A DNA stretch of 64,000 nt from the NCBI GenBank assembly GCA_937872315.1, contig CALMST010000252.1, positions 71,781-135,780 of the forward strand. The letters are read 5' to 3'. Below, piece after piece: positions 1-25,948 of the stretch; within the stretch, counting starts at the first letter, position 1; each line of letters opens with the position of its first letter. This DNA comes from an uncultured Ignavibacteria bacterium (GTDB lineage: Bacteria > Bacteroidota > Ignavibacteria > Tepidaquicellales > Tepidaquicellaceae). The translations under genes were made by a program, and so were the position numbers. The notes under the pieces were generated by a model, which saw only the letters and a program-made list of their open reading frames with translations, did no database searches and had not been told where the DNA came from.

Positions 1-980
1 TTGGCTTACCTATGGTTACTACATTGTGTTCCCTTACCGGATCATCCGTAAGTGTTGCGCACACAGTTGTTTCAGTTGGTCCGTATGCATTTACTACTCT
101 TATTCCCCGGGATGTAAATGTTTCTGCCGTTTCAATATTCAGCGCTTCTCCTGCCGAGACTATAGTTTTTATTGACGGCATTTCTGCTGTCATATCTCTG
201 ATTGTCTGCTGAAATGAAGAAGGTAATGTTGCTAATTCAATTCCGTATTCATTGATCAGATATTGAAATTTATCAGCCGAGAGAATATCTTCCTTATTAC
301 AAAGTACCAGACAGCCCCTGCTCAGCAAGGTATTGAATATGTCATAACACGATGCATCAAAACCTGATGATGCAAACTGCAGTGTCTTCATTCCCGGTTT
401 CAGCCAAAGCAATTCTTCCTGACTAAGTGAAAGATTAACTACTCCCTTATGTTCGATCATAACGCCTTTTGGCTTTCCTGTCGAACCGGATGTGTAGATA
501 ACATATGCAAGATTTTCCGGAGTTATATCCTTTTGTAAATTTTCTTTTGAATGCTTGCTGATCTCACTTTTCTCTGAATCAATTTCAATAATTTCAACAC
601 TGTTTAATTCAGGTAATCTCAGTCCGTTATCAAATGTCTTTCTGCTTGTGATAAGTAAATTTGCATTTATATCCTCAAGCATAAACAACATTCTTTCTTC
701 CGGATATTCAGGATCGATCGGGACATAAGCAGCGCCTGCTTTAAGTATTCCGAATATTGCAATGATCATTTCAATGCTCCTGTCTATGCAGATAGGAACA
801 AATGTTTCGGTCTTTACCCCTTTCTCTTTTAAGTAATGGGCAAACTGATTCGAGCGTTCATTAAGTTCAATGTATGATACCTTTTCATTCTCATACTCAA
901 GCGCTATCGATTCGGGTATTTGTTTTCCGTATTCTTCAACTATATCTGCTATAGTTTTTTCTTTTGGATAATTTCTTTCA
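1..980 (-). other. NRPS domain: adenylation domain A4, truncated by window edge (partial code DAYTVAAVC-, Phe/Tyr-like)
   Basis: Verified motifs: YTSGSTGKPKG (~461-521), SSGFDASCYDIF (~330-365), GIELATLPSSF (~205-240), TIVSAGEA (~150-175) and NAYGPTETTVCAT (~65-100). Confidence 0.75.
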
Positions 981-9900: not shown

Positions 9901-12900
9901 CGTATCTCTGTATCCATTCATTTTCATTTTTACGATATTCAAATCTTAACGCATCGTGATAAGAAGTTAATTGTTCTACGGCTTTACCGAGCATTTCCTG
10001 TGTAATACTTTTATCAATGCTTAGCAGAATACTCTGATTGAAATGTGATTTATTCTCCCCTGCTCTTTCAAAATATGCTTGCTGAACCGGAAGTAATCCG
10101 GCAATACCGGATAACAATCCCTGCTCCCCTGTATAAATATCCTTTGATCTTGTCTCAATTGCAGATGATAATTTTCTGATAGTCTGATAAATAAATATAT
10201 CAGCAGGTTTCATTTCTATACCTGCTCTTCTTGCTCTGCTTACCACCTGAATAGTAATGATCGAATCACCTCCGAGTTCAAAAAAATTATCATTTATTCC
10301 GACTTTATCCAAATTCAATAATTCTTTCCAGATCCCGGCAATAGAAATTTCAATTTCATTTCGGGGCTCTTCATGTTCATTTGTCAGAAGTTCACTAAGA
10401 TCAGGATCGGGTAAAGCTTTTCTGTCAACCTTTCCGTTCTTATTCAATGGTAAACTTACCATATCCACAAATATTGCGGGGATCATATACTCTGGAAGTT
10501 TTCTTCCCAGATATGCAATGATCCTTTCCTTATCAAATTTCCCTTCAGGTACTATATATCCGATGAGTCTCTTTCCGCCTGATGATGTCTCGGAAGCTAC
10601 TACAACAGACTGCTTAACTGCTCCGCTTTCCTGAATGACACTTTCTATTTCACCAAGTTCAATTCTGAAACCTCTGATTTTTACCTGATCATCTATTCTG
10701 CCTTTGTATTCAATATTGCCGTCATCAAGCCAACGGCAGATATCCCCGGTTTTATATAATGTTGAATCAATGTCTTTACTGAATGGATTTTTTATGAAAC
10801 TCTCTTTAGTCAGTTCCGGAGAATTCAAATATCCGCGGGCCAAACAATCACCTCCTAAATACAACTCACCGTTGACTCCTACGGGTACTCTGTTTCCGGC
10901 TTTATCAAGAATGTAAACTTTGACATTAGAAAGCGGTTTCCCGATAGGAAGTGAATTTCCATAAAATTTATTTTCAGATGCGTTAAATTCTATCGCCGTA
11001 ACAGTTGTCTCTGTTGGTCCATACTCATTATAAAATACGGTGGTGTTTTTCCAGTAATCGGCTAATTCTGGCTTGCACACATCACCACCTGCTATTACTC
11101 TTTTAAAATAAATATGGTTTTCCGGTTTTACATTTTCCAGAAATGAAGGTGTAGCGTGGAGATGTGTTATTTTCTGATCAACTAAAAATTTTTCAAAAAG
11201 CTCTTTATTGAGCTGCAATCCATCCGGAATCAAAACAAGAGGCACTGCATTAAATAAAGCAAGAAAAATCTGTTCGACTGATGCATCAAAACTGAAATTT
11301 GCGAATTGTAAAATTCTTTCATCTTCTGATATTCCAAAATATTTAGTCTGAGCAAATATGAGATTTACAACTGTTCCGTGCTCTATCATTACGCCTTTCG
11401 GCTTGCCTGTGGATCCTGATGTATAAATTATATAAGCAAGATTTTTCTGATCAATATTTACTTTGACATTTTCTTTTGAATGACTTTTTATCTCCTGATC
11501 AGTATCAAGTTCAGTTGCTCTGTCAGAATACTCAGCAGGTAGTTTTGATCTGCATTTCTTACTGCTGAGAATAAATTCAGCTCCGGTATCTTCAATTATA
11601 AACTTTTTCCTGTCCTCAGGGTATTGGGGATCAATGGGAACGTATGCCGCTCCTGCCTTGAGAATACCGAGTATTCCCGCAATCATATCAAATCCACGCT
11701 CAATACAGATCGGAACTAATGTTTCATTTTTAATTCCCCTGCTTATCAAATAATTTGCGATCTGATTCGACTTCTCATTAAGTTCAGGATATGTTAAACT
11801 TTGATCTTCATAAATCAAGGCTGCTTTATCAGGAGTATTCTCTGTCCGCTCTTCTATAATTTCTATAATACTTTTTTCTTTCGGAAATTCAGCATTCGTT
11901 CCGGCAAAAGCATCTAATTGTATATTTTCATCTTCGGTTAATATCGATAATGAATCTATTTTTTCTTCAGGTGATCTGGCAATAGAATTCAGCAGCTCCG
12001 AATAATGATCTGCCATTCTTAAAATTGTTTTCTCATTAAAAAGCTCTGTGCAGTAAATGATCTCACATTTCAATTCACTCTCAGTTTCAGTAATATTGAA
12101 AGTAATTTCATACATTGATGTATCAGGGATCAGATCTTCGCGTTCAATTTCCAGATCATTTAATTTCAATGCTTCAGCCTCAGGTGTGTTATGAAGGATG
12201 AACATTACCTGGAACAATGGACTTCTGTTTAGTATCCTCTCCTTTACAGTTGCTTCCACTACTTTTTCAAAAGGCACTTCCTGATGACCAAATGCTTTAA
12301 GTGAATTAGATCTGACTTCTTTTAGAAATTCAGTGAATGGAATATTACCTTTTACTTCGTTTCTCAGCGCAAGTGTATTTATAAAGAATCCGATGAGCTT
12401 CTCAAATTCCTGTTTATGTCTGCCTGCTACAGGAGTTCCTGCACATATATCTTCCTGACCAGTGTACCTGTAAAGAAGTACATTGAAAGCCGAAAGCAAT
12501 GTCATGAAAAGCGTAGCATTATTTTCATTTCCTAAAACAACAAGTTTGTCCCTTAATTCTTTTTTAATTTCAAATTTTACTGAAGCACCGCGGATACTTT
12601 GTGAATTTGGTCTGGGAAGATCAGTAGGCAGTTCGAGTGGCTCTACTCCCTGAAGTTCATTTTTCCAGAATTCCAGTTTATTATTCAGAATTTCATCCCG
12701 GATATTCTCACGCTGCCAAATGGCATGATCGGCGTATTGAATATTCAGCTCAGGCAAAATACTTTTCCTGTTCTCAATGAAAGAAGAATATAGTTCCAGA
12801 AACTCTTCCGCAAAAATAGAAACAGACCATCCGTCTGAAGCTATGTGATGCAAGGTTATGATCAATATATTTTCATCAGTTCCTGTGTTGATAAGATCTG

Positions 12901-13636
12901 CTCTGACCATGTGATCATTTGAAAGATCAAATGGTTTGTTGATCAATTGCCGGATATATCTTTTTAATCCCGCAGGATCATCTTTAAATATTGTCCCGTT
13001 TGATTCGTTTAATTTCCATACTGTATTTTCATTTATCTTCTGATAAGATTTTCCGTCAATTTCAAAATATACAGTCCTCAGTATTTCATGTCTTCTGATT
13101 ATTTCATTTAAAGTATTAACTAAAGCTTCTTTATTGAGTTTTCCGTTTAACTTAAACACAGCCGGTAAATGGTATTGCAAACTTCCTTCAAGCTTATCTA
13201 TAAAAAGTAATCTTTCCTGACTGAATGATAACGGAATTTCTTCAGGCCTTTTTCTGACTGAAACGGAAATGTCAGATTTTTCTTCAGACTTATTTTCCTT
13301 TTTCTTATCTATTAATCCGGCTAACTGAGAGATAGTTGGTTTTAAAAAAATTTCACTTGTCTCAAGCTCTACAGAAAAATGTGAAGAGATGCGTGACAGC
13401 AGCTGAATAGCTTTAATACTGTTTCCGCCTGACATAAAGAAATCATCGCCCGTACCGAAATCACCATGACCAAGCAAGTTCTTCCAGTATTCAAACAGAA
13501 CTTTTTCAGTCTCACTTACTGGAGCGATAAAATTACTGCTGTCAGAACTGACAGTTTTCTTATCTTTGGTATTTAGTAAATTAAGAAGGTCTTTACCTGT
13601 TTTGCCTTTTAATGTATTTGATTGTTTTTTCTTCAA
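1..13636 (-). CDS. Non-ribosomal peptide synthetase, at least 4545 codons in window, C-terminus beyond position 1; domain order T-C-A-T-E-C-A-T-C-A-T-C-A(partial)
   Basis: Hand translation of the reverse frame (codon first bases at coordinates = 1 mod 3) is open from TTG 13636 to the window edge. Carrier-Ser motifs: GGNS (Ser 13418-13420), GGDSI (10262-10264), GGHSL (5669-5671 and 2498-2500). HHxxxDG motifs: HHIASDGWS (~12826-12851), HHLAVDGVSW (9677-9706), HHLLFDGWS (8243-8272), HHISSDGWS (~5088-5116), HHIASDGWS (1911-1938). A-domain cores: YTSGSTGKPKG (~11394-11440), FTSGTTGRPKG (~6819-6862), YTSGSTGRPKG (~3655-3695), YTSGSTGKPKG (~461-521). The last readable residues, FTSRGIRVVNAYGPTETTVCATLTDDPVREHNVVTIGKP, span 118-2. 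The ORF is missing from the supplied track because no stop codon lies inside the window. Confidence 0.9.
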   Translation of the reverse strand, partial: MKKKQSNTLKGKTGKDLLNLLNTKDKKTVSSDSSNFIAPVSETEKVLFEYWKNLLGHGDFGTGDDFFMSGGNSIKAIQLLSRISSHFSVELETSEIFLKPTISQLAGLIDKKKENKSEEKSDISVSVRKRPEEIPLSFSQERLLFIDKLEGSLQYHLPAVFKLNGKLNKEALVNTLNEIIRRHEILRTVYFEIDGKSYQKINENTVWKLNESNGTIFKDDPAGLKRYIRQLINKPFDLSNDHMVRADLINTGTDENILIITLHHIASDGWSVSIFAEEFLELYSSFIENRKSILPELNIQYADHAIWQRENIRDEILNNKLEFWKNELQGVEPLELPTDLPRPNSQSIRGASVKFEIKKELRDKLVVLGNENNATLFMTLLSAFNVLLYRYTGQEDICAGTPVAGRHKQEFEKLIGFFINTLALRNEVKGNIPFTEFLKEVRSNSLKAFGHQEVPFEKVVEATVKERILNRSPLFQVMFILHNTPEAEALKLNDLEIEREDLIPDTSMYEITFNITETESELKCEIIYCTELFNEKTILRMADHYSELLNSIARSPEEKIDSLSILTEDENIQLDAFAGTNAEFPKEKSIIEIIEERTENTPDKAALIYEDQSLTYPELNEKSNQIANYLISRGIKNETLVPICIERGFDMIAGILGILKAGAAYVPIDPQYPEDRKKFIIEDTGAEFILSSKKCRSKLPAEYSDRATELDTDQEIKSHSKENVKVNIDQKNLAYIIYTSGSTGKPKGVMIEHGTVVNLIFAQTKYFGISEDERILQFANFSFDASVEQIFLALFNAVPLVLIPDGLQLNKELFEKFLVDQKITHLHATPSFLENVKPENHIYFKRVIAGGDVCKPELADYWKNTTVFYNEYGPTETTVTAIEFNASENKFYGNSLPIGKPLSNVKVYILDKAGNRVPVGVNGELYLGGDCLARGYLNSPELTKESFIKNPFSKDIDSTLYKTGDICRWLDDGNIEYKGRIDDQVKIRGFRIELGEIESVIQESGAVKQSVVVASETSSGGKRLIGYIVPEGKFDKERIIAYLGRKLPEYMIPAIFVDMVSLPLNKNGKVDRKALPDPDLSELLTNEHEEPRNEIEISIAGIWKELLNLDKVGINDNFFELGGDSIITIQVVSRARRAGIEMKPADIFIYQTIRKLSSAIETRSKDIYTGEQGLLSGIAGLLPVQQAYFERAGENKSHFNQSILLSIDKSITQEMLGKAVEQLTSYHDALRFEYRKNENEWIQRYGTANGILLTADLRNSRADKKELEDLIKEHAENYQKSLDIEKGELARFVLVLTPEEELNNRIFIIIHHLAVDGVSWRILLGDLEMILENYRNGIEPELGEKGSSYRQWYQALAEFGKSKRLQSQENYWKQIQDSYKQIKVDKEYSAELIAKDIELKTVELDQTKTRHLLKDVPGIYHTDINDILLCALAMTLCSRENSGQIVIGMEGHGREEISDRIDISRTVGWFTSIYPVLLNADSEKNISDHIKSVKEQIRRIPGKGLGYGVLKYINKNGNFEDSITPEILYNYLGQLDNVTGESNIFSGTPAAAGTDISPEQKVREKLTINAIIKDDKLVLNWNYSTKHFEFDTINKLTSDYSENLNTIITHCLGVKNSDLIFTPSDFGLGSEISYEELDGFLDEKYGDTTRRNNIESIYRLSGLQEGMLFHALYDTDGGAYIEQLSCDLKDPDIELIRKSWNQLIVNHSSLRSGFYNDVFRIPVQVVYRDVEMPVILKDLSGMGSEEQRLTIEGISEKNRLNGFSLSSVPLMNIVLLKLDESNYKMIWTSHHLLFDGWSLAILMEEFLKTYEDLTGSDENIKTDSDNYLDYIRFLERKDKDEQLIYWKDYMQGIEQSTLLPFSGITTQRTKGVGDYDTFNLILNEETKDRAESYAQKNRLTLNTLLQGVWSYLLHRYTGNEDVAFGVIVSGRPDELPGIEKKVGLYINTLPLHSRLLQKDKAETINWLQEIQSKQVESAKYQYTPLQEIQNQTGISGDLFDSIIVFENYPLNELIRSKNWKLKVDNVMMKEQSNYPLSLLINNSDQININFIYNENVFNREYINEISKHFENVLQQIISNEKKSINDIYILSESDEKKLLSEFNDTEAEYPVDKSAVELFEEQVLKTPESIAVVYENESITYKELDDRASKLANHLIGKGINPGDKIGLLSYRCIEMMTGIFGILKAGCSYVPFNTDYPAERIQFITEDCGIKNIVYTDKNLLEKSGLKEFSFYDFINIEDSESASDKTPGIKAKIDSCIYVMFTSGTTGRPKGIAVSHRNVIKLVYDTGGIAIREGDRVLQWSNYSFDGSTYDIYGSLLTGASLHLIKDEWASDGDELARVMTEQKISVVFMTTALFNTIVDINAEAFRSLRKILFGGEMVSLSHVNRALDVVGDNVIMHVYGPTETTTYATSYTVNEKRNEGTVPIGKPLSNTQLYVLDTSGKLVPVGVGGELHIGGDGVSMGYISNEELTKEKFIPNPFSNDPDSKIYKTGDLCRWTAEGNIEYLGRIDDQVKIRGYRIELSEIESVLFEIESVSNAVILAKEDKAGTKKLVAYVVPEDGFNFNKEEIISQLRHKLPDYMIPALWVEMESLPLNTSGKINKKALPDIDASELLRNEYIAPRNETEEKLAAIWKDLLNIEQAGINDNFFELGGHSLLAIRLISAIRREFNSEISIKDIFYYPTITELADLILKGNSFSVLPPIKADDRPEHIPLSFSQERLWFIDRLEGTVQYHIPAVFRLKGDINKTALSKALQSIIERHEVLRTVIYEKNGTGYQKILNSNKWGLHEMDGAEFKNDAAGLQSYIQDLINKPFDLLSDFMLRADLINVDENESVLVVTMHHISSDGWSLSVIVNELSELYKAYCENREANLLPLQIQYADFSIWQKKYLTDEVLDKKLEYWKSKLTGAEPLQLPADFIRPAVQSIRGASFEFKISKELTDKLEQLSKQNGATLYMTLLAAFNILLYRYSGQKDISVGSPVAGRQQKEAEHLIGFFVNTLVLRNEIENSFTFTDLLEQVKINTFGAFENQEVPFEKIVEAVVKQRDVSRSPLFQIMFILQNAPEVPEIDLNKLVLEKEEFVNNISKFDISVSMTETPEGLIGSADYCTDLFKENTIAIMMTHFKELLNSVAEDPENKIGSLPMLTKQEEHQILSDFNGKEVDYPKDKTIFELFEDQVKKTPDSIAVVFEDEKLTFKELDEKSNQLAHYLHSKGVKIETLVPICLERSLEMIIGLFGIMKSGGAYVPVDPEYPQERINFLLEDTSASIVVSKKESSSRFIFPVNTELVNIDSDWSEIEKFSKEKVDTVINSTNLAYVIYTSGSTGRPKGVMNEHRGVVNRLLWGRDYFNLTSEDSILQKTTYCFDVSVWELFSFLISGARLVFARPGGEKDTSYLKSVIDKEKITMIHFVPSMLEIYLNDIERGDNTGLKYVVCSGEALKPSHAELFKEKFEKTELHNLYGPTEAAIEVTYWELPRDGKKIEIVPIGKAISNTSMYILNNEDELVPVGGIGQLHIGGVQVARGYLNRPELTKEKFVKDPFSKIPGSRIYRTGDLSRWLPDGNIEYAGRMDDQVKIRGFRIELGEIESVLMQSGLVQQTVMLAPEDASGSRRLVAYVTTSGDFKKEEAISYLQSKLPQYMVPAVWVEMESFPLNQSGKINKKLLPKPADTEYASNEYIAPRNITEEKLAEIWKELLHADRIGIKDNFFDLGGHSLLAMRVISSVRKELGYELSIKDFFIQPTVEELARLLEKNSDSKVYKLPIAKIKERPEFIPLSFSQERIWFIDKLEGSIQYHMPAVLRIKGNVDTEALESTFKNIVNRHEILRTVIKEHEGKAYQYVNEKDGFELEFIDGTKYNGHQTALKNYIQELINVPFDLAADNMLRGHLIKLNDDEQILVLTMHHIASDGWSISVIVKELVEFYKAHEEKRDPDLNPLEIQFADYSIWQREYLQGEVLDNKLDYWKEKLYGVEPLQLPVDFARPAVQSKKGANANFSIDKNLTDSLLKFSRQNDVTLFMTLLSAYNVLLYRYSGQEDFTVGSPVAGRQQAETEDMIGFFINTVAMRSEINGELPFRDFLHKVRSTTLEAYEHQDVPFEKIVDAVVKQRDMSRSPLFQVSFMLQNTPEVPELKLGDAILNVEEFSNNISKIDITFSLTETPEGIEGNVEYCTDLYTEETILRMTSHFKEILVSVLKSPDQKIGTLNMITEKESRQLLIEFNDNERNYPKEKTIADIVEEYGKQIPESIALEYENEKVSYIELNERSNQFAHYLKEKGVKTETFVPICIDRSIEMIIAIFGILKAGAAYVPIDPEYPEERMLFMLEDINANLLITSRKTFDNGLRLPELNSVEIIEIDSEKSEISKHSKENLQKDITPENLAYVIYTSGSTGKPKGVMIEHKGVVNLSLSQEELLWLKPGMKTLQFASSGFDASCYDIFNTLLSRGCLVLCNKEDILSADKFQYLINEYGIELATLPSSFQQTIRDMTAEMPSIKTIVSAGEALNIETAETFTSRGIRVVNAYGPTETTVCATLTDDPVREHNVVTIGKP
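1040..2340 (-). other. NRPS domain: condensation domain C4
   Basis: IPLSFSQERIWFIDKLEG (2281-2338) and HHIASDGWS (1911-1938). Confidence 0.85.
2420..2590 (-). other. NRPS domain: carrier domain T3
   Basis: FFDLGGHSLLAMRV, Ser codon 2498-2500. Confidence 0.85.
2690..4150 (-). other. NRPS domain: adenylation domain A3 (hand-derived code DVWHVSLIEK, Ser-like)
   Basis: Verified motifs: YTSGSTGRPKG (~3655-3695), YCFDVSVWELF (~3525-3570), KITMIHFVPSML, YVVCSGEA, NLYGPTEAAIEVTYW and SGKINKKLLP (~2641-2690). Confidence 0.8.
4210..5510 (-). other. NRPS domain: condensation domain C3
   Basis: PLSFSQERLWFIDRLEG (~5461-5510) and HHISSDGWS (~5088-5116). Confidence 0.85.
5590..5760 (-). other. NRPS domain: carrier domain T2
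   Basis: FFELGGHSLLAIRL, Ser codon 5669-5671. Confidence 0.85.
5850..7330 (-). other. NRPS domain: adenylation domain A2 (hand-derived code DGYFLGVTYK, no match I recognise)
   Basis: Verified motifs: VMFTSGTTGRPKG (~6819-6862), SFDGSTYDIYG (~6690-6735), ISVVFMTTALFN, KILFGGEMVS, HVYGPTETTTYATSY, GELHIGGDGVSMGY and SGKINKKALP (~5821-5858). Confidence 0.8.
7400..8690 (-). other. NRPS domain: condensation domain C2 (DCL-like)
   Basis: YRLSGLQEGMLFHALY (~8641-8680) and SHHLLFDGWS (8243-8272). Confidence 0.8.
8790..10140 (-). other. NRPS domain: epimerization (E) domain
   Basis: HHLAVDGVSWRILLGDL (9677-9706). It follows a GGDSI carrier and precedes a C domain with DCL-type motifs. Confidence 0.8.
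10180..10350 (-). other. NRPS domain: carrier domain T1, GGDSI type (the type usually found upstream of E domains)
   Basis: FFELGGDSIITIQVV, Ser codon 10262-10264. Confidence 0.85.
10420..11900 (-). other. NRPS domain: adenylation domain A1 (hand-derived code DAEHIGEVTK, identical to the A domain of the upstream NRPS)
   Basis: Verified by codon-level translation: FDASVEQIF (~11255-11300), QKITHLHATPSFLEN (~11115-11160), RVIAGGDVC (~11075-11100), NEYGPTETTVTAIEF (~10985-11035) and NGKVDRKALP (10403-10462). Confidence 0.85.
11950..13250 (-). other. NRPS domain: condensation domain C1
   Basis: IPLSFSQERLLFIDKLEG (13203-13260) and HHIASDGWS (~12826-12851). Confidence 0.85.
13330..13530 (-). other. 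NRPS domain: N-terminal carrier domain T0 (GGNS type) of the second NRPS
   Basis: ETEKVLFEYWKNLLGHGDFGTGDDFFMSGGNSIKAIQLLSRI, Ser codon 13418-13420. It is preceded only by a ~36-aa Lys-rich segment. Confidence 0.85.
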
Positions 13637-13642
13637 TATGTT

Positions 13643-16600
13643 TTAAACCGCGGTTTCCTCTGTTAGTTTTATGTTTTTACTGTGAGCGTTAGTCTTTGTA
13701 TCAATATTCCATTCTGAATTTGCCAGAAATTCCTGAAATGGTTTATTCTTTTGAGTAGGCTGAAAATAAAGTTTAATTTCGCCTAAACCTTTTTCTACAC
13801 AATAGCTTTCAAGCTCTGATAAGATAGTTCCTTCCACATTCCTGCCAAGTACTCTGCAGCTTAATAGAAATGTGTCTATTTCAAGAATGTTACCGTTAAC
13901 TTTTCCCATAACCAAACCGACTATACCGTATTCTCCGAATCTGTCCTTTACATCAACAATCCTGCAAATGGAATTTTCATCACCGGTATATCTTTTAACT
14001 TCTTCAGGAGTTTTTCTGACTCCGTTAAGATTAAACTGATTGGTTCTTAATGTTAACTGAACCGCTCTTTCAAGATCTTTTGGTCCCGGAGCTTTCATAT
14101 CCACTTTTATCTCAAGTGATTTCAGAAAATCATCAAGTGTACCGAAGTTTTCTTCTTCAGATTTTCTCTGCTTTTCGACTTTGTACATCTCATTTCTTTT
14201 TCTGTCCTCATCTGTGATCCGGAAATAATCAAAAGCCCAGATATGATTAAGAAATTCTGAAAAACTTTCATCTTCACCGGGTAATGTCAAAGATAAAACA
14301 TCGGGACAATTCTGTGTCATCTGGTCAGTCTCAAATTCATTGTCATCTACAAAAATAAAGCTGTTTATTCCCAGATTTAATTCCTTTGCTATTGATACCA
14401 GGTTTTGAGGTTTCGGCTCCCAGTTAATCCTGTGTGCCGCAATGTGTTCACGTTTTAATTTCATTCCGGGATGTTTGTCAAATACTTCCCAGACATCATC
14501 TTCATTATTCTTGCTGCTTAAAACTAATAAGAATCCTTCGTTATATTTTTCTATAAAAAATTCCTGCAGCTCAGAATAATTCTCATCTATTTCTACATTA
14601 AGTGCTCCCACTTCCCCGCAGATTCCTTTCCATAATGTATTGTCACAGTCTAGAGCTATAACTTTATATGAAGGATTCATAAACGCACTTACCTTTCTTG
14701 TCATGTATGTTCCGAGTGCCGCATAAAATTCCGGAGTAAATGGCATATGACCGAGCTCATCCGTTTTCGGATCATAAACATCTTCGACATCATACAGTTC
14801 TTTAATAACATTAACATCTATGAATTGTACAGAAGATATCCTGTTGAGAAATAATTCAAGCTCTTTATTTATTTTATCTAAATGATCAACGGTTTCCTTC
14901 TCAAAATCTTTATCAGTTATTGAATTTACCGGAACGATCATTACTAAAAACGGTATGTATATTTTTTCAACGGCATTTTTTAAAATTTCCAGAAATTCTT
15001 TAAACGTTTTGTCCAAAAATTCTATCTGCTCTGATGCATTGTCAGCTTTTTTATCTCTCAGCCAATCTTCCGTTCTGATGAATAAAAAATTAATTCCTTT
15101 GTCACTGTACAATAAACTTCCGGGATTCATCAGCTGCTGAAACACCTGATTGTATGGTGCAATATCAATTTTAATTTTTATGCCGATCTCATTGCTCCAG
15201 TATTCCATGTATTCTTTTACCGGCTCTGTCACAAATGATGAGCAAACATTTACGGGCATTGAGGCCACAGTTGATTTTTCCTGAACTGATTCTTTATTTA
15301 TATTAATTTCCGTCTCCATCTTTTTATTTTCATTACTCCACTTTATATATTCTGATAAATAATTATCCGGTTTACTGACAGCATTTTCAAGAAGTCCGAT
15401 ATAATCATCCAGAAATTCTTTCATTCTTTTCTCCGAATATAACCTTGTATTGTAACTTAAATGTAAATTAATTCTTAAATCATCCGGTACAGCATCCAGT
15501 TTAAAATCCAGAACTGACTGAAACAGATCTTCATTTCCTGATCCGTAAGATTTTAATTCTATAACTTCATTATGTGTTTTATCCGTTTCGGAATTGGATT
15601 TCATTTCCGATAAATTATCAATGATCTGAAAATTCATCATTGTATCAAAAAAAGGATTCCTTGAGACATCCCTCTTTTTTATAATATCCTCAACCATTAG
15701 ATCGAAAGGGTAATCCTGATTATTGAAAGCTCCTACTATATCATTTCTGCATTTGCCTATAAACTCGGATAATTTTAAATGCTTCTCAGGCGAAATTCTG
15801 ACCGGTAGAAAGTTTATGAATACTCCTACAAGATCTTCAAGATCAGGATGACTTCTCCCTGAGCTCACTGTTCCGATAACAACATCTTCCTGACCGCTTC
15901 CCGCGGCTACGGATAGTCCGTAAAGGATCATCATTAAATTATTCAGGGAAACATTATTTCTGACTGCCATCATCTGAAGCTCTGAGGTCAATTTCTCAGA
16001 AACTATCCCGCTGATTTTATTCCCTGAATATGAAAGAACTTCCGGTCTTTCATTATCCGCCGGAAAATCCAAAAGAGGAATACCGTTTTTATAAACTTCC
16101 TTCCAGTATTTCCCCTGCTCCTCAAAAGTTGATTTATGCCATTCGGCATAATCTTTATATTGTATCGGAAGAGGCTTAATATCATTTTCTTCTTTAAGAC
16201 AGCAAGAATTATAAAAGCTTAAAAAATCATTTATCAAAATTTCTTTCGACCAGCCGTCACTGATTATATGATGAATATTGAAAAGTACAATATGTTTTTC
16301 TACGGATATTTTAAATAAATAAATTCTTATGAGCGGACCTGTTTTAAGATCAAACGCTTTTTTTATATCTTCTTCTCTGTATTCTTTTATTATTGCATCA
16401 GCGTTTTCTGAACCGGTAAGATCTTTCTCAAATATTTCAAACCCTGTGCTTTCATAAGATAGTATTTTCTGATACGGCTCGCCTCTGTTTTCAATAAAAA
16501 CTGTTCTGAGTATTTCATGCTTCTTCACTACTTCTTCAAATGCCGATCTGAAAGCATCGGGATTTAATTTACCTTTTATCTCAAACAGATTTGAAACATT

Positions 16601-19600
16601 GTATGCTTCAGATCCATCTTTGAATTTACTAAGTATCCAGAATCTCTTCTGAGCATGTGACAATTCATAAAGATCCTTTTCCGGTTGTTTTTTAATATCT
16701 GGAAACTGGGTACTCTTTTCAATTTCAAGTGCTTTTGAAAGTCTGTAAATAGTGGGATTTGAAAATATTGTCCCGATGTCAGTTCTGACATTCAACACCT
16801 TATTGATCCTTGAAGAGAGTCTGACTGCATTTAGACTATGACCTCCTAGTTCAAAGAAATTATCATTAATTCCTACCTTTTCAATTTTTAGAATTTCTTT
16901 CCAGAGTTCAGATAATTTTACTTCAATTTCTGTTTCCGCTTCCTGATATTCGGCATTTACTGTTTCACTGATCTGGGGATCCGGAAATGCTTTCCTGTCA
17001 ATTTTACCGTTGGATGTTACAGGAAATGATCCCATTTCAACCCAGACAGCCGGGATCATATATTCCGGTAATTTTTTTGCAAGGAAATTTCTGATCCTGT
17101 CACTTTCATATCCATGCTCAGGTATTACATAAGCAACTAATCTGTTATTTCCGCTGCTGTCAGTACCGGATAACACCACTGAATTTTTTACAAGCCCTGA
17201 ATCAAGTATCACTGCTTCAATTTCGCCAAGCTCTATTCTGTAACCGCGGATCTTTACCTGATCATCTATTCTCCCAAGAAACTCTATATTTCCGTCTGTC
17301 ATCCATCTTCCCAGATCACCTGTTCTGTACATTAACTCTTTTCCGGATTTTATAAACGGATTATTTACAAACTTTTCCTCAGTTATCTCAGGCAGATTCA
17401 AATAACCTCTAGCAAGACAATTCCCCGATATGCATATCTCACCGGAGACTCCGACCGGACAGATCTCATTATAGTTGTCAGCTATATATACACGAATATC
17501 GGATAGTGGTTTTCCGATCGGTAAAGTTAAATTACTGAAAGTTTTCCGGTCATTTCTTACCTGATATTCTATAGCTGTAACTGTAGTTTCAGTCGGACCA
17601 TATTCATTATAAAAATTAACTTTATCTTTCCAGTTATCACTTAATTCATGTTTGCAAACATCCCCGCCTGCTATGACCCTTTTAAGATCAGGGAAATTGC
17701 TGCTATCCGGAACAATGTTTTCAAGAAATGCCGGAGTTGCATGAAGATGAGTTATTTTTTTCTCAATTAAATATTCATTGAATTTTTCCTGATCCAGCTG
17801 AAGTCCTTCACGAAATAAAACTAAAGTTGCACCATTGGTCAAAGCCAGAAATATCTGTTCGACAGATGCATCAAAACTGTAATTTGAAAACTGCAATATT
17901 CTGTCAGCAGAAGTAATATTAAAATATTCACTTTGTGCTCTGACAAGATTTACTACGGTTTTATTTTCTATGATAACACCTTTTGGTTTACCTGTCGAAC
18001 CGGAAGTGTATATCACATATGCCGCATTTTCAGATTTCAGATCTGTCTTTGGATTATCTGATGATTGATTTTTCAGTTTCAAAATTGTTTCAGGATCATC
18101 AAGAATTATATTTTCTATGTTTCCATTATCGTGTAATTTCAATGAACTCTTACTGCTGCTTAAAATAATACTCGCATCTGTATCCTGAAGCATGTAACTG
18201 ATCCTGTCTGCCGGATACTCCGGATCAATCGGGACATAAACACCGCCAGCCTTGAGAATTCCAATAATTCCAATTATCATATCCAGACTTCTTTCAATAA
18301 TTATCGGTACAAGTTTTTCATTTTTTACACCTTTTAAAAGTAAATAATTTGCCAGTCTGTTGGAGCGGGTATTGAGTTCCTGATATGACAGCTCTTCGTC
18401 ATGAAAGATGAGAGCTGGATTATCAGGTGAGTTCTTAACCTGATCAGGTATAAGGTCTGTAAGTAAAACGGAATTGAATTCCGTTTTACCCAACAAAACT
18501 GTCCCGTTGAATCCCTCAAGTAAATTCTCCTCTTCCGGCGGAATAATTCTTACTCTTTTCAATTCCGATGAAAAATTTTCCTTTAATTGCTTTATAACAA
18601 ACAATATTCTTTTTACAAAAAGCTCTGCTTCAGTTTCATTAAAATATTCCCTGCTATATTTGACAATAAACTGAACGGGATTTTCTTTTCCGTAATCCCT
18701 CCAGTATAACTGCAGAGGACCTGTATCATAATCACTTTCCAGTCTTATTACTTCTGATTTTATTTCACTTCCAAAATCAGGTGAAAAATTCAAAGGCTCA
18801 TAATTTAAACTGACCTCAAATAAATTTTCCTTTTGTATATCTCCTGATGACTTATCCTTTAGATTTCTTTTGATCTCACTTAAAGGATAATTCTGATGCC
18901 GGTAATCGCTTCTCTGTGCCTGCTTGATGAAATGCAGAATATCTTTTACTGTCTGATCTCCTTCATATACTCCCCTGAATGGCAATACTCCGCTGAACAT
19001 TCCTACTGTATTTCGTAATACCTTCGAACCTCTTTTATGTACCGGTACACCAATAACAGGTTCTTTCACCTTTGAAGTCTTTCCAAAATAAATTAATAAA
19101 GCTGCTAAGATCAATTGCTGAATTCCGGAATCAGTTGTCTTCTCAATTTCTGACAACTCAGCTTTTTCTTCTTCCCGTATATTTAAAACATATTTTCCAA
19201 TATCAATCACTGACTTATCTTTCCTGATATACTTTCTCTGTAATAAAGGTTCAGATCTGTGACTTATCTTTTCCTTCCAGTATTTCTCATCATTACTGTA
19301 TGTTCCGGAATTTAAATATTCACCGGACTTTGAGATCTCTTCCAGATATGAAGGATAATTAAATTCATCTTCACCACCTTCTGTTAATGATTTATATTTT
19401 TGTGCTACATATTGAATGAAAACTATAAAACCAAAACCATCAGTGATCAAATGATGATATCTTCCGAAAAACCAATGTTCTTTATCAGATATTTTTAAAA
19501 GAGAATGTTCATATAAAGGATTTTCCTTTTTCAATATAAAAGGTGTATTGAATCTGTTTTGCATCCATCGAATAGCATCTTGTTCACTATCTTTCTTTCC

Positions 19601-19867
19601 TGAAAAATCAATATCAACAATACCCGTATCAGCGGATCCTTCATTCAAATAAAAATCTGTCCCTTCATTTTCCGTATCGAATCTCATATTAAAAACATCA
19701 AATACATACGGAGCCGAATTCACCGTTTGAAAAAATTTTTCTTTATTCAGTGAACCCTTTAATTTAATATATCCGCCAAGATTATAATGAGGACTGTCTT
19801 TATTTATCAACTGATCCACATATATGTCCCTTTGTGCCGGATGCATTGGAAAAGTTGCTTTTTGCAT
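13643..19867 (-). CDS. Non-ribosomal peptide synthetase, 2074 aa: starter-type C - A - T - C - FkbH-like (HAD phosphatase + Cys acyltransferase) domain
   Basis: ORF-track translation shows HHLITDGFG (19436-19456), AAYVIYTSGSTGKPKG (~17979-18025), NGKIDRKAFP, FFELGGHSLNAVRL (Ser 16835-16837), HHIISDGWS (~16248-16275), ALDCDNTLW (14630-14656) and FLLSCRVLGR (13841-13870, Cys 13856-13858). Confidence 0.93.
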   Translation of the reverse strand: MQKATFPMHPAQRDIYVDQLINKDSPHYNLGGYIKLKGSLNKEKFFQTVNSAPYVFDVFNMRFDTENEGTDFYLNEGSADTGIVDIDFSGKKDSEQDAIRWMQNRFNTPFILKKENPLYEHSLLKISDKEHWFFGRYHHLITDGFGFIVFIQYVAQKYKSLTEGGEDEFNYPSYLEEISKSGEYLNSGTYSNDEKYWKEKISHRSEPLLQRKYIRKDKSVIDIGKYVLNIREEEKAELSEIEKTTDSGIQQLILAALLIYFGKTSKVKEPVIGVPVHKRGSKVLRNTVGMFSGVLPFRGVYEGDQTVKDILHFIKQAQRSDYRHQNYPLSEIKRNLKDKSSGDIQKENLFEVSLNYEPLNFSPDFGSEIKSEVIRLESDYDTGPLQLYWRDYGKENPVQFIVKYSREYFNETEAELFVKRILFVIKQLKENFSSELKRVRIIPPEEENLLEGFNGTVLLGKTEFNSVLLTDLIPDQVKNSPDNPALIFHDEELSYQELNTRSNRLANYLLLKGVKNEKLVPIIIERSLDMIIGIIGILKAGGVYVPIDPEYPADRISYMLQDTDASIILSSSKSSLKLHDNGNIENIILDDPETILKLKNQSSDNPKTDLKSENAAYVIYTSGSTGKPKGVIIENKTVVNLVRAQSEYFNITSADRILQFSNYSFDASVEQIFLALTNGATLVLFREGLQLDQEKFNEYLIEKKITHLHATPAFLENIVPDSSNFPDLKRVIAGGDVCKHELSDNWKDKVNFYNEYGPTETTVTAIEYQVRNDRKTFSNLTLPIGKPLSDIRVYIADNYNEICPVGVSGEICISGNCLARGYLNLPEITEEKFVNNPFIKSGKELMYRTGDLGRWMTDGNIEFLGRIDDQVKIRGYRIELGEIEAVILDSGLVKNSVVLSGTDSSGNNRLVAYVIPEHGYESDRIRNFLAKKLPEYMIPAVWVEMGSFPVTSNGKIDRKAFPDPQISETVNAEYQEAETEIEVKLSELWKEILKIEKVGINDNFFELGGHSLNAVRLSSRINKVLNVRTDIGTIFSNPTIYRLSKALEIEKSTQFPDIKKQPEKDLYELSHAQKRFWILSKFKDGSEAYNVSNLFEIKGKLNPDAFRSAFEEVVKKHEILRTVFIENRGEPYQKILSYESTGFEIFEKDLTGSENADAIIKEYREEDIKKAFDLKTGPLIRIYLFKISVEKHIVLFNIHHIISDGWSKEILINDFLSFYNSCCLKEENDIKPLPIQYKDYAEWHKSTFEEQGKYWKEVYKNGIPLLDFPADNERPEVLSYSGNKISGIVSEKLTSELQMMAVRNNVSLNNLMMILYGLSVAAGSGQEDVVIGTVSSGRSHPDLEDLVGVFINFLPVRISPEKHLKLSEFIGKCRNDIVGAFNNQDYPFDLMVEDIIKKRDVSRNPFFDTMMNFQIIDNLSEMKSNSETDKTHNEVIELKSYGSGNEDLFQSVLDFKLDAVPDDLRINLHLSYNTRLYSEKRMKEFLDDYIGLLENAVSKPDNYLSEYIKWSNENKKMETEININKESVQEKSTVASMPVNVCSSFVTEPVKEYMEYWSNEIGIKIKIDIAPYNQVFQQLMNPGSLLYSDKGINFLFIRTEDWLRDKKADNASEQIEFLDKTFKEFLEILKNAVEKIYIPFLVMIVPVNSITDKDFEKETVDHLDKINKELELFLNRISSVQFIDVNVIKELYDVEDVYDPKTDELGHMPFTPEFYAALGTYMTRKVSAFMNPSYKVIALDCDNTLWKGICGEVGALNVEIDENYSELQEFFIEKYNEGFLLVLSSKNNEDDVWEVFDKHPGMKLKREHIAAHRINWEPKPQNLVSIAKELNLGINSFIFVDDNEFETDQMTQNCPDVLSLTLPGEDESFSEFLNHIWAFDYFRITDEDRKRNEMYKVEKQRKSEEENFGTLDDFLKSLEIKVDMKAPGPKDLERAVQLTLRTNQFNLNGVRKTPEEVKRYTGDENSICRIVDVKDRFGEYGIVGLVMGKVNGNILEIDTFLLSCRVLGRNVEGTILSELESYCVEKGLGEIKLYFQPTQKNKPFQEFLANSEWNIDTKTNAHSKNIKLTEETAV
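13646..15260 (-). other. FkbH-like domain (HAD-IIIC phosphatase core plus C-terminal Cys-containing acyltransferase-like part)
   Basis: DxDxT motif in VIALDCDNTLWKG (14630-14656). Downstream motifs VLSSKNNEDD, FVDDNEFE and RTNQFNL. Conserved TFLLSCRVLGRNVE (Cys codon 13856-13858). This pattern is characteristic of FkbH/OzmB-type glyceryl-ACP-forming enzymes. Confidence 0.8.
15340..16700 (-). other. NRPS domain: condensation domain immediately upstream of the FkbH-like domain
   Basis: LYELSHAQKRFWIL (~16631-16680) and HHIISDGWS (~16248-16275). Confidence 0.85.
16790..16960 (-). other. NRPS domain: peptidyl carrier (T) domain
   Basis: FFELGGHSLNAVRL, with the phosphopantetheine Ser codon at 16835-16837. 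Confidence 0.85.
16990..18450 (-). other. NRPS domain: adenylation domain (hand-derived specificity code DAEHIGEVTK)
   Basis: Motifs TSGSTGKPKG, FDASVEQIF, ITHLHATPAF, RVIAGGDV, NEYGPTETTVTAIEY, YRTGDLGRW, GRIDDQVKIRGYRIELGEIE and NGKIDRK are present. The code was obtained by manual alignment to GrsA-PheA positions 235-517. Confidence 0.85.
18580..19867 (-). other. NRPS domain: N-terminal starter-type condensation domain (Cs)
   Basis: The protein begins directly with a C domain (MQKATFPMHPAQRDIYVDQL...HWFFGRYHHLITDGFG). No A-T loading module lies upstream. From memory, the layout resembles lipoinitiation C domains such as the N-terminus of SrfA-A. Confidence 0.65.
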
Positions 19868-19962: not shown

Positions 19963-20763
19963 TTAATATTTCTTTGTCAGCCTTTTTGTGTGTGTGGAAA
20001 CTGCGGCTTTTGTATAATACTTGTAATACCTGAGATTTTTTCTGTTCCACCAGTAGTTGATGTTTATGGAAAAATCCATAGACCTGACATGATGCCACCA
20101 GTGCAAAGGAATGTACAATATATCTCCGGGATAAATTGTAGCTTTATAAGCCTGGGATTTTTCATACAGAGGAAATTTTTTGTGATCTACATTGTCAAGG
20201 TCTATCAAACTGATCTGCCTTAAAGTCTTTGGACCATGTACATTCGGATAAAGATATTTATCATCATCAGGATGAAAAAGTATGATTTCTTTTTTCCCTT
20301 TGATCTGAATAAGAAAATTATCCGATCCGTCAAAATGCAGCGGGGATACACAACCTGCACCGCCTATCCATAAATTTCTTACTTTGTTTTTGTCAGTTTC
20401 TTTCATCCACTTTGGTTCATCAAGATCTCCGAGAAGTTCAGGAAAATTATCCGGAATGGAAGACTGCTGAAGATAATATGCCTTATTTGTTTTAATATAA
20501 TCCACCGCCTCATCAAAAGGCAGAAATACCCTGGAAACACTTCCTTTATGATAATCATAAACTCCGCTCTGACTTGTCCTTACATCTACTTTCTTCTTTC
20601 CAAATAAAGAATTGAAATATTCCGCTGACCATTTTTTAAAAGCTTTGTAATCGTTTGCTCCGCCTTTTATTATTACCGGGATGCTTGGCTTATAATAGTT
20701 ATTGTCGAATTCATCTGTTGATAATTCTGAAACGGTTGAAATATCTTTATATTTTGTATCCAT
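19963..20763 (-). CDS. JmjC / Cupin_8-type Fe(II)/2-oxoglutarate-dependent oxygenase (putative tailoring hydroxylase)
   Basis: NLWIGGAGCVSPLHFDGSDNFLIQIKGKKEIILFHP (HxD metal ligands) and YIPLHWWHHVRS (distal His). It sits between the thioesterase and the first NRPS gene on the same strand. Confidence 0.7.
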   Translation of the reverse strand: MDTKYKDISTVSELSTDEFDNNYYKPSIPVIIKGGANDYKAFKKWSAEYFNSLFGKKKVDVRTSQSGVYDYHKGSVSRVFLPFDEAVDYIKTNKAYYLQQSSIPDNFPELLGDLDEPKWMKETDKNKVRNLWIGGAGCVSPLHFDGSDNFLIQIKGKKEIILFHPDDDKYLYPNVHGPKTLRQISLIDLDNVDHKKFPLYEKSQAYKATIYPGDILYIPLHWWHHVRSMDFSININYWWNRKNLRYYKYYTKAAVSTHTKRLTKKY

Positions 20764-20864: not shown

Positions 20865-21596
20865 TTAATTAAATGCTTTTCTATGATTTGAGTTTACTGA
20901 TAAAGTTTTCTCAATTATTTCCATTACTTCTTTCTTCTTTTTGAAAATAAAAAAATGCTTTCCCTCTATTCTGTTGAAATCAATTTCCAAGTTTGTTTCT
21001 TTCTGCCAGAGAAGAATATCGTCAACTTCCATGTCTTCTTCGGTGCCTGTTATAACAGTTATCGGAATGTTTAAAGGCTCTGAATATTTATGAACATAAT
21101 TTTCACATACTTTAAAATCTGATCTCAGTATCGGTTCAAAAAATGCCATAAGTTCTTCAGTATCAAGTATCTCTTCAGGTATTCCGTCAAGATCCTTCAT
21201 TTCCTGAATGAACTCCTTCTGAGGCATTAAATGTCTCTTTCTTTCCCGCTTTTCAAATACTGAAGGACCTGAAGTTCCTGTGATTATTAAATGCATTGGT
21301 GTCTTGTAATTTTTTTCTTCTAATTTTCTCGTAAGCAGATACGCGAGAAGTCCTCCCATGCTGTGACCGTACAATACATAATCTTCATCGCTTATTTTGG
21401 TTTTTATCTGATTAAACAGATCTTCTACAAGCTCGCCTGCATCTGATATAAGAGGTTCTTTTATTCTGGGAACCCGCCCCGGATAATCAAGAGTATGGAA
21501 AATATAATGCGAAGGAGCTGCATCCTCAAACTCTCGGTATGAATATTTATTGCCGCCTGCATACGGAAGACAAAATATTTTCAAAGGTCTGATCAT
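20865..21596 (-). CDS. Type II (editing) thioesterase, alpha/beta hydrolase
   Basis: FCLPYAGGN near the N-terminus, nucleophile elbow GHSMGG, ~240 aa, NRPS context. Confidence 0.85.
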   Translation of the reverse strand: MIRPLKIFCLPYAGGNKYSYREFEDAAPSHYIFHTLDYPGRVPRIKEPLISDAGELVEDLFNQIKTKISDEDYVLYGHSMGGLLAYLLTRKLEEKNYKTPMHLIITGTSGPSVFEKRERKRHLMPQKEFIQEMKDLDGIPEEILDTEELMAFFEPILRSDFKVCENYVHKYSEPLNIPITVITGTEEDMEVDDILLWQKETNLEIDFNRIEGKHFFIFKKKKEVMEIIEKTLSVNSNHRKAFN

Positions 21597-21964
21597 GCTA
21601 ATTTTTTATTATAATTTTCTTCTTTCCGGTATCTGAGAAAGCTTCCTGATAATGAGGCAAAACCTGCAACCATTCCGGCTATAATTCCGGTCAGTATGAT
21701 CAGTAAAACCGGACTGTTCATGAATATCATAAGTTGAGATATCTTCTGTGCCAAAATATTCCCGTTATTACTGCTTATAAAAAAACCCAGGCCTCCCCAT
21801 AATAAAAACAATGATAAGAAACCGCAGCTAAAAGCTTTTACTGGTTTCATTGGAATTATTAACGAAACCAAAAATGCAACTACAGCAATGCTCCACCATG
21901 GTAAGAAAATACCTGCAGGATAACTAAGTACAGCAGTTAAAATTAATGATCCAATAAATTTCAA
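21593..21964 (-). CDS. Small integral membrane protein (about 4 TM helices), unknown function
   Basis: Hydrophobic segments span the whole 123-aa ORF. Its stop overlaps the thioesterase start by 4 nt (21593-21596), which suggests translational coupling. Confidence 0.55.
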   Translation of the reverse strand: MKFIGSLILTAVLSYPAGIFLPWWSIAVVAFLVSLIIPMKPVKAFSCGFLSLFLLWGGLGFFISSNNGNILAQKISQLMIFMNSPVLLIILTGIIAGMVAGFASLSGSFLRYRKEENYNKKLA

Positions 21965-25137: not shown

Positions 25138-25629
25138 ATGATTAAAACCATAAAACATAATCTGTCTTTAAAACTTGACCTTCTCGGTTTTTCAGCTTCA
25201 ACTATTTGCGCAATTCATTGCGCTCTTATGCCATTCATAATTGTTTTTCTGCCGATGTTTGGATTACAGTTTATAGCTGACCCTTTGGTTGAATACATTT
25301 TTATAGCTGTAAGTCTGATAATAGGCGCTTTTACTTTCAGGCACGGATATTTTAACCACCATAAAAAACTCTACCCATTTCTCTTATTCCTTACAGGCTT
25401 TTTTATCATAGTTGCGGGACATACTCTTTTTCACAATCATTCGCATGAAATCAATTCTAATCATGAATTTTCCGATACGGATAATATATTATTTCTTCTG
25501 ATAGCCCCGATAGGCGCTTTCATTATTGCTGCTTCACATTTGATAAACAGAAGATTGTCAAAAAATACTAAAATTTGTTGTACCATGGAAGCCGTTGTCA
25601 AAAATGATTCAGGAATCGAAATAAATTAA
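25138..25629 (+). CDS. MerC-like membrane protein with His-rich loop
   Basis: Four hydrophobic helices, ICAIHCALMP motif, HNHSHEINSNHE loop and a C-terminal CC pair. First gene of the plus-strand unit that precedes the TonB-dependent receptor. Confidence 0.55.
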   Translation: MIKTIKHNLSLKLDLLGFSASTICAIHCALMPFIIVFLPMFGLQFIADPLVEYIFIAVSLIIGAFTFRHGYFNHHKKLYPFLLFLTGFFIIVAGHTLFHNHSHEINSNHEFSDTDNILFLLIAPIGAFIIAASHLINRRLSKNTKICCTMEAVVKNDSGIEIN

Positions 25630-25636
25630 CCATTAA

Positions 25637-25948
25637 ATGAAAAAATTAAACACATTTAAAAAGATTCAGAAGTTTACATCTCTTTTATTTGTTATATTTT
25701 TTCTATTGCTGAATAGCGGGACTGAAATACTTCACCATCATTCAGAATCCCGTGACCATAATCATAATAAGGATAACTGCAGGATATGTCTGAATCTCGA
25801 AAAACTTACATGTCCTTTTCTTTTATCCGGCAGTTATGATCTGGATCCTTATACAAACATCACTTTTCATATATCTTCATTAGCATTACCGGCTTCACTT
25901 AATTTTAGTAATTTTCACTCAGGAAGATCCCCCCCTTCTGAAGTATAA
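25637..25948 (+). CDS. Small membrane-anchored His/Cys-rich protein (putative metal-binding)
   Basis: N-terminal hydrophobic helix followed by EILHHHSESRDHNHNKDNCRIC. Lies 8 nt after the MerC-like gene. Confidence 0.45.
   Translation: MKKLNTFKKIQKFTSLLFVIFFLLLNSGTEILHHHSESRDHNHNKDNCRICLNLEKLTCPFLLSGSYDLDPYTNITFHISSLALPASLNFSNFHSGRSPPSEV

Follow-up and report, generated by a model that had tools for sequence, protein, structure and literature searches.

A nonribosomal peptide synthetase module from an uncultured Ignavibacteria bacterium with an FkbH domain in the adenylation position, predicted to insert glycerate into a lipodepsipeptide

The classical role of FkbH-type enzymes is the supply of polyketide extender units and tetronate precursors. 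FkbH, OzmB and Tmn16, as well as the cyanobacterial starters in which FkbH is followed by a carrier (T) and a condensation (C) domain (FkbH-T-C, cyanopeptolin or aeruginosin type), act at the start of an assembly line or provide extender or tetronate units. Here we analyze an FkbH domain in the interior of a nonribosomal peptide synthetase (NRPS) assembly line, encoded in a 64,000-nucleotide stretch of DNA from an uncultured Ignavibacteria bacterium (GenBank assembly GCA_937872315.1, contig CALMST010000252.1, positions 71,781 to 135,780 of the forward strand). We refer to this entire stretch as the window and use its own numbering for all positions. The domain forms the C-terminus of the synthetase NRPS-1, directly upstream of a second synthetase, NRPS-2, and occupies the place of an adenylation (A) domain in a module that is predicted to build glycerate into the peptide chain. 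An earlier inspection of the letters of the window and their translations (the initial annotation) had drawn attention to this region.

Several assembly lines with FkbH domains in peptide modules have been described. The cystomanamide synthetase has the domain order (C-A-PCP-E)1-(C-C-A-PCP)2-(C-A-PCP-E)3-(C-FkbH-PCP)4-(C-A-PCP-E-TE)5, where PCP stands for the peptidyl carrier protein, E for the epimerization domain and TE for the thioesterase, and yields Asn-Asn-Phe-GA-Tyr, with GA denoting glycerate; cystomanamide B is the product with the extra glycerate and Tyr (PMC9581180). The initial annotation held that those FkbH domains described in peptide lines stand at the beginning of the line, which is not the case, given that module 4 of the five cystomanamide modules is internal and receives a peptidyl donor (PMC9581180). 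The vioprolide line contains a C-FkbH-T module in the second position, the C domain of which forms an ester to glycerate (PMC8949500), and the corramycin line shares with it the order FAAL-ACP-C-FkbH-T, in which an FAAL (fatty acyl-AMP ligase) and an acyl carrier protein (ACP) precede the module (PMC10099666). The FkbH domain of both lines is reported to activate phosphoglycerate (PMC8949500, PMC10099666). Glycerate is present in products of the cystomanamide line, and its presence in vioprolide and corramycin has been deduced (PMC9581180, PMC8949500, PMC10099666). Finally, a seven-module NRPS of Flavobacterium sp. Leaf82, described in 2024, has an FkbH-like domain in module 5 and ends in a SulM-like, monobactam-forming thioesterase (PMC11298585).

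In the window, the region directly after the second C domain of NRPS-1 is FkbH-like, as the initial annotation had suggested: in a profile search, residues 1535-2074 match the NCBIfam model TIGR01686 ('FkbH domain') with 298.2 bits (cut-off 146.65), over model positions 2-316 of 323, and the HAD-IIIC model TIGR01681 with 68.7 bits, well above anything expected by chance. Pfam alone gives only a HAD match below the threshold for this region. FkbH-like proteins comprise an N-terminal extension and two subdomains, one a phosphatase, the other an acyltransferase (PMC12304814). We aligned the region of NRPS-1 with 26 homologs (27 sequences, 39-67% identity) and built an AlphaFold2 model on the same alignment (mean predicted local distance difference test score, pLDDT, of 86.8). 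In a Foldseek search, the first two thirds of the model matched PDB 3slr, which covers the N-terminal part of BF1531 from Bacteroides fragilis including the phosphatase domain (E 2.4e-21; also matched in a sequence search at 1.3e-25), and the last third matched many GNAT acetyltransferases. The S-C-R motif lies inside the GNAT-like part, after a strand whose last residue is number 503 of the modelled fragment. D1740, D1742 and S2003-C2004-R2005 are invariant in all 27 aligned sequences. The cysteine of FLLSCRVLGR, which had been placed at 13856-13858, lies exactly there and is residue 2004; the HAD motif LDCDNTLW is likewise present (residues 1739-1746), but its span, given as 14630-14656, is one codon shorter (14630-14653). 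Because of the three-part make-up, the retained catalytic residues and the end-to-end match to TIGR01686, this region is a complete FkbH domain and not a bare HAD phosphatase. The two findings that the initial annotation had named as speaking against an FkbH domain, namely, a generic HAD domain lacking the acyltransferase half and the loss of the catalytic Asp or Cys, were not encountered: the GNAT-like third with its S-C-R motif is in place, and the catalytic residues do not vary across the alignment.

The carrier that follows is encoded by the next gene. NRPS-2 begins at a TTG codon at 13636, six bases after the stop of NRPS-1, and the same start is called in four public assemblies. Its first domain, T0, is an ordinary NRPS-type carrier that matches profiles of NRPS carrier regions with E-values down to 5e-13 and, with the carrier T1 of NRPS-1 as the query, scores 28 bits; the context of its serine is FFMSGGNSIKA. 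It does open NRPS-2 ahead of a C domain, as proposed, but it is not a stand-alone carrier, being the N-terminal domain of a synthetase of 5289 residues (length from the public gene calls). There is no A domain between the second C domain of NRPS-1 (C2) and T0. Residues 1062-2074 of NRPS-1 and the first 112 residues of NRPS-2 are one elongation module, C-FkbH/T, which is split over two proteins (here and below, a slash marks a gene boundary).

To place this module among its relatives, genomes were scanned with the FkbH alignment, one genome per species; at least 595 relatives were found, the best 79 loci were kept, and their domain order was mapped with small profiles made from the domains of the window itself. 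Because many contigs are short, the counts of C-FkbH-T contexts that follow are lower bounds. These loci hold 87 FkbH domains, 58 with a C domain before them and 42 with T-C after them; both conditions apply to 32 domains at 29 loci. An A...T module lies upstream of 28 of these 32, and in eight the junction between FkbH and carrier is split between two open reading frames. Mid-line C-FkbH-T-C is common in genomes. The initial annotation named no example of an internal C-A-T-C-FkbH/T-C arrangement; internal FkbH modules have precedents in cystomanamide, in module 5 of the Leaf82 line (PMC11298585) and in the 29 related loci with C-FkbH-T-C in mid-line.

The gene arrangement C-A-T-C-FkbH/T-C-A of the window recurs in full at four of the closest loci (L001-L004) and in part at three others (L006-L008), with FkbH domains 51-64% identical to that of NRPS-1. 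L001 comes from a metagenome-assembled genome (MAG) of Ignavibacteriaceae, and the other six come from Chitinophagaceae and other Bacteroidota MAGs. The split between the FkbH and carrier genes is common to the window and these seven loci from Ignavibacteria and Chitinophagaceae. Further hosts of related loci include Paenibacillus, Cohnella, Chitinophaga, and MAGs of Acidobacteriota, Verrucomicrobiota, Chloroflexota and Clostridia; the cyanobacterial related loci have FkbH-T-C starter layouts. Three loci (L011, L016 and L017; a Eubacteriales MAG and a metagenome chromosome) have single lines in which C-A-T modules are interspersed in turn with C-FkbH-T modules, two or three per line, and the peptides made by these lines would contain several in-chain glycerates. 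At L041, from a Chloroflexia MAG, C-FkbH-T-E occurs twice (1-7368 and 10568-15376), with an E-like domain after the presumed glycerate carrier, an unexpected order where the substrate is a hydroxy acid.

The same set of loci bears on the carrier motif. GGNS had been considered atypical, which it is not: it is found in 19 of the 135 ordinary carriers and in 20 of the 75 carriers after FkbH. This enrichment is mild, and we discarded the idea that GGNS marks the carriers partnered with FkbH. The carrier serine is preceded by neither His nor Asp in 38 of 75 carriers after FkbH against 22 of 135 ordinary ones, again a mild tendency that we give little weight.

An FkbH domain matching the same TIGR01686 profile could, in principle, provide an extender unit for polyketide synthesis, carrier-bound as hydroxymalonyl or methoxymalonyl, or else furnish a tetronate or lactate precursor; FK520, oxazolomycin, tetronomycin and bryostatin are examples of such roles. 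For the domain in the window, we regard such a role as highly improbable: the visible part of the operon encodes no ketosynthase, acyltransferase, dehydratase or ketoreductase domain, no FkbI/FkbK-type dehydrogenases and no methyltransferase; the carrier that would be loaded, T0, has a C domain on each side; and the C-FkbH-T-C context recurs at 29 related loci.

We consider it likely, instead, that glycerate is loaded on T0, esterified by C2 with an N-acyl-aminoacyl group, and that the chain is then extended by an amide bond. Glyceryl loading and ester formation by the preceding C domain had been proposed in the initial annotation and are supported as far as sequence goes, with FkbH in the A position between an intact C domain and T-C. 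The FkbH domain would take a phosphorylated glycerate (1,3-bisphosphoglycerate or 3-phosphoglycerate), and its HAD part would strip the phosphate. The glyceryl group would be held on Cys2004, which we presume, from studies of FkbH and OzmB, to be the site of the glyceryl-S-enzyme intermediate, and then handed to the phosphopantetheine arm of T0. Module 1 (the starter C domain, A1 and T1) would produce N-acyl-aminoacyl-S-T1, from which C2 would join the N-acyl-aminoacyl group to a hydroxyl of glyceryl-S-T0; the bond at glycerate would have to be an ester because glycerate has no amine. The next C domain, C3, would move the N-acyl-aminoacyl-O-glyceroyl unit onto the amine of the following residue, which would later be epimerized, and at least four more modules would extend the chain. 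The substrate, the ester bond, the hydroxyl used and the product are inferred; the last would be a lipodepsipeptide containing in-chain glycerate.

The donor is predicted from the domains of module 1. The best PDB matches of its C domain, C1, are 7c1k, 7c1h and 7c1p (about 1e-29), which we take to be the starter C domain of rhizomide synthesis, followed by CDA-C1 (4jn3, 6e-18), with ordinary elongation C domains at 1e-14 or weaker. In a tree of C domains (see below), the sole companions of C1 are the C domains that open the orthologous lines. Since C1 is most like starter C domains, module 1 probably makes an N-acyl-amino acid through lipoinitiation. The specificity codes of the A domains were obtained by alignment to the GrsA numbering. 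A1 and A2 (16988-18457 and 10415-11863, minus strand), which flank the predicted glycerate module, carry the identical code DAEHIGEVTK and are 57% identical overall, the highest value for any pair of A domains in the line. Two acidic pocket residues in this code hint at a basic side chain, and we assign no substrate. Among the orthologs, module 1 has the same code at L001, L004 and L006, a Ser code at L003 and an Ala-like code at L002.

The later codes in NRPS-2 are DAEHIGEVTK, in a module with an E domain, DGYFLGVTYK, DVWHVSLIEK and DAYTVAAVC-; from published codes, we take the last three to be Ile/Val-like, Ser and Phe/Tyr-like, respectively. The predicted order would then be acyl, X (DAEHIGEVTK), O-glycerate, D-X (the same code, with the E domain), Ile/Val-like, Ser, D-Phe/Tyr-like and onward. 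NRPS-2 runs past the edge of the window. In a fragment of an 87%-identical relative (P0242), the module at the window edge goes on as A-T(GGDS)-E, which fits the length of 5289 residues. NRPS-2 is thus predicted to end in an E domain; given such an end, one or more further synthetase genes must follow beyond the window.

C2 is predicted to form the ester. Its motif HHIISDG is intact, and its closest PDB matches are of the LCL type (TycC, 2jgp, 1e-66). This agrees with the behavior of most characterized ester-forming C domains, including VioA of the vioprolide line, which are reported to group with LCL domains; VioA is among those characterized in vitro (PMC12304814). We compared 172 C domains, taken from the related loci (all uncharacterized) and from the window itself, in a neighbor-joining tree based on simple distances and without support values. 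In this tree, the ten nearest neighbors of C2 are all C domains preceding FkbH, some from Aminicenantes and Bacillota, and none from its own line. The same pattern holds more broadly: for 36 of the 41 pre-FkbH C domains, some pre-FkbH domain at a different locus is nearer than every other C domain at the home locus. C2 falls within a pure clade of 30 pre-FkbH C domains from 24 loci and the window, representing several phyla, whereas C3, an ordinary LCL-like domain, has its nearest relatives among the remaining elongation C domains of this line and those of orthologous lines. Four loci with the FAAL-type layout (L032, L056, L058 and L070) are outside the clade of C2.

The clade is marked by the core motif GxFINFLP[IV]R (FINFLP), in place of the GxFVNTLAxR (FVNTLA) of ordinary C domains; in C2, the motif reads LVGVFINFLPVR (residues 1346-1357). 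Phe replaces Thr at this core motif in 63% of all pre-FkbH C domains but in 1% of ordinary ones. Taken together, these patterns make the pre-FkbH clade a good lead, not a proven subtype. A bolder version, which we hold to be possible but doubtful, is that the pre-FkbH C domains are a dedicated ester-forming subtype, marked by GxFINFLP[IV]R, that has moved between phyla jointly with FkbH, and that the C-A-T-C-FkbH/T-C lines with starter C domains in Ignavibacteria and Chitinophagaceae make an undescribed family of N-acyl-aminoacyl-O-glyceroyl lipodepsipeptides, in which the N-terminal, ester-linked unit may be a removable pro-moiety.

Another possibility is that the module is passed over or does not function, C2-FkbH being a relic, or that T0 is loaded in trans by a free-standing A domain. 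Not all products of the cystomanamide line contain glycerate and Tyr (cystomanamide B does, A does not; PMC9581180), and part of the cluster in question lies beyond the window. Nevertheless, the catalytic motifs of C2, FkbH and T0 are all intact, and in genomes of Ignavibacteria and Chitinophagaceae the module has been maintained with 51-64% identity, which argues for selection on function; we therefore think it quite unlikely that the module is idle or depends on another enzyme.

Several points weigh against in-chain glycerate esterified by C2. The substrate is deduced solely from family membership. NRPS-1 and its close relatives, of which the nearest found is 68% identical, are biochemically uncharacterized. 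The comparison with the modules of cystomanamide and VioA is one of domain order. The tree that sets the pre-FkbH C domains apart is weakened by its construction from simple distances without support values. The line ends beyond the window, and an A domain acting in trans or a tailoring enzyme acting on T0 may exist. The domains, their order, the intact motifs and the conserved arrangement of the genes (Table 1) are observations that stand apart from these points.

Table 1. Features of the NRPS locus in the window
Feature	Position	Strand	Basis
NRPS-1, 2074 aa, starter C-A-T-C-FkbH	13643..19867	-	same 2074-aa gene called in public assemblies
C1, condensation domain of the starter type, residues 1-452, with HHLITDG at 138	18512..19867	-	PDB matches
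A1, adenylation domain, residues 471-960, code DAEHIGEVTK	16988..18457	-	Pfam AMP-binding
T1, carrier domain, residues 981-1050, GGHS; predicted donor carrier for C2	16718..16927	-	Pfam PP-binding, 50.8 bits
C2, condensation domain before FkbH, residues 1062-1520, HHIISDG at 1199	15308..16684	-	domain profiles and motif
FkbH domain, residues 1535-2074	13646..15265	-	TIGR01686, TIGR01681
FkbH, N-terminal extension	14675..15265	-	sub-boundaries from model secondary structure and profile coordinates
FkbH, HAD-IIIC phosphatase part	14216..14665	-	model secondary structure and profile coordinates
FkbH, GNAT-like acyltransferase part	13673..14212	-	model secondary structure and profile coordinates
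HAD motif I, DCDNT (D1740, D1742, T1744)	14636..14650	-	27-sequence alignment
Codon of Cys2004, S-C-R motif	13856..13858	-	27-sequence alignment
NRPS-2, first 4545 of 5289 residues, T0, C-A-T-E, C-A-T, C-A-T, C-A...	1..13636	-	runs past window edge
T0, carrier domain, NRPS-2 residues 43-112, GGNS, Ser73 codon 13418-13420	13301..13510	-	carrier-region profiles
C3, condensation domain, NRPS-2 residues 129-576, HHIASDG at 263, LCL-like	11909..13252	-	C-domain tree
Penicillin-amidase-family N-terminal nucleophile (Ntn) acylase, first gene of apparent operon	22001..24466	-	Pfam PF01804, 637.6 bits
123-aa hydrophobic open reading frame	21593..21964	-	gene call in four public assemblies, strongly hydrophobic translation
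Type II thioesterase	20865..21596	-	Pfam PF00975, 133.4 bits
Cupin_8/JmjC-type hydroxylase	19963..20763	-	Pfam PF13621, 172.7 bits

The G+C content of the window is about 35%. Its first 24.5 kb are filled by minus-strand genes with short gaps, in the order acylase, 123-aa open reading frame, thioesterase, hydroxylase, NRPS-1 and NRPS-2, and the same operon is found in GCA_035327025.1 (DAOLED010000007.1), GCA_035326605.1, ENA ERZ27240677 and Logan SRR2107182. Elsewhere in the window, a ClpC-like protein (45972-48488) has a 100% identical counterpart in a MAG of an Ignavibacteria bacterium, and its next matches also come from Ignavibacteria. Orthologs of the type II thioesterase lie upstream of the NRPS genes at L001-L004 (287-347 bits). 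An ortholog of the Cupin_8/JmjC hydroxylase was found in the flanks of L001 only, and a CmlA-like diiron beta-hydroxylase is encoded at L001, L003 and L004, replacing or alongside the Cupin_8/JmjC enzyme. A methyltransferase, a glycosyltransferase and a phosphopantetheinyl transferase are present or not depending on the orthologous locus, and none of them is encoded in the visible part of the cluster in the window. The tailoring genes of the orthologous clusters (L001 1325-4314, L003 540-5267, L004 684-5343) thus differ, and the family appears to be variably tailored.

The acylase at the head of the apparent operon has the D-succinylase 7eby as its closest PDB match (1e-56), followed by cephalosporin and penicillin acylases. 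A PvdQ-like removal of the fatty acid was considered and dropped, the PDB matches being led by D-succinylase with PvdQ not among them. A search of the upstream flanks of the related loci did not turn up the acylase, so its membership in the cluster depends on strand and short spacing, and its link to the NRPS pathway is uncertain. The adjacent 123-aa open reading frame has no Pfam match.

These two genes matter for a variant with the same chemistry, in which the N-acyl-aminoacyl ester on glycerate is a temporary pro-moiety that is cut off after export, so that the mature product begins with a free glycerate. In the vioprolide and corramycin lines, glycerate is O-acylated in the precursors, for which such a removal is proposed, and corramycin is proposed to mature by hydrolysis (PMC8949500, PMC10099666); an Ntn acylase and a small hydrophobic, possibly membrane, protein encoded at the head of the operon would suit such a scheme. 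However, the acylase family cuts amides, not esters, the closest structural relative is a D-succinylase, and the gene was not found in the flanks of the related loci. The variation of the module 1 amino acid among orthologs favors neither a retained nor a removed ester. We rate the removal of this unit as unlikely, and favor a lipodepsipeptide that keeps it.

Divergent from the NRPS operon, on the plus strand (25138-28449), are genes for a membrane protein of the MerC family and for a TonB-dependent receptor; nothing ties them to the operon. The receptor (26128-28449) had prompted us to consider a siderophore, and this idea was rejected because the gene is on the other strand, beyond the MerC gene, and no further support was found.

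The cluster is predicted to be an uncharacterized lipodepsipeptide pathway of uncultured Ignavibacteria, and is a reasonable target for genome mining. In-chain glycerate would provide an ester and a free hydroxyl without a hydroxy-acid-specific A domain or a ketoreductase. Few products of C-FkbH-T modules have been characterized, and our survey shows that the module is far more common in genomes. The signature of the pre-FkbH C domains could help genome mining to predict ester bonds. We found no paper on a nonribosomal peptide from Ignavibacteria; if the pre-FkbH C domains are indeed a dedicated ester-forming subtype, the products of these lines would be, to our knowledge, the first from this lineage.

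The module type itself is already published and common in genomes, and involves no new kind of chemistry. What is particular to the module in the window is its place right after the lipoinitiation module, its N-acyl-aminoacyl donor, as predicted, the separation of FkbH and carrier on two genes, in which its closest relatives agree with it, and its host lineage. Free-standing and loading FkbH enzymes belong to the same TIGR01686 family, but no C domain precedes them, so that the glycerate hydroxyls are not used for extension. The Leaf82 line is, like that of the window, an NRPS of the Bacteroidota lineage with an FkbH-like domain instead of an A domain in an internal module, at a different position from that in the window. 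Vioprolide and corramycin share with the window a C-FkbH-T module in the second position, but there the donor is a fatty acyl-ACP supplied by FAAL, whereas in the window it would be the N-acyl-aminoacyl-S-T formed by the starter C-A-T. In cystomanamide synthesis by Cystobacter fuscus (Etzbach et al. 2014, as tabulated in a 2022 review, PMC9581180), as in the window, FkbH stands in for the A domain of an internal module, with an aminoacyl or peptidyl donor upstream and C-A-PCP downstream. The two differ in that the cystomanamide FkbH module is the fourth of five and, in that table, includes its carrier, whereas that of the window is the second, follows lipoinitiation and has FkbH and carrier on two genes; the cystomanamide producer is a myxobacterium, and the window comes from an Ignavibacteria MAG.

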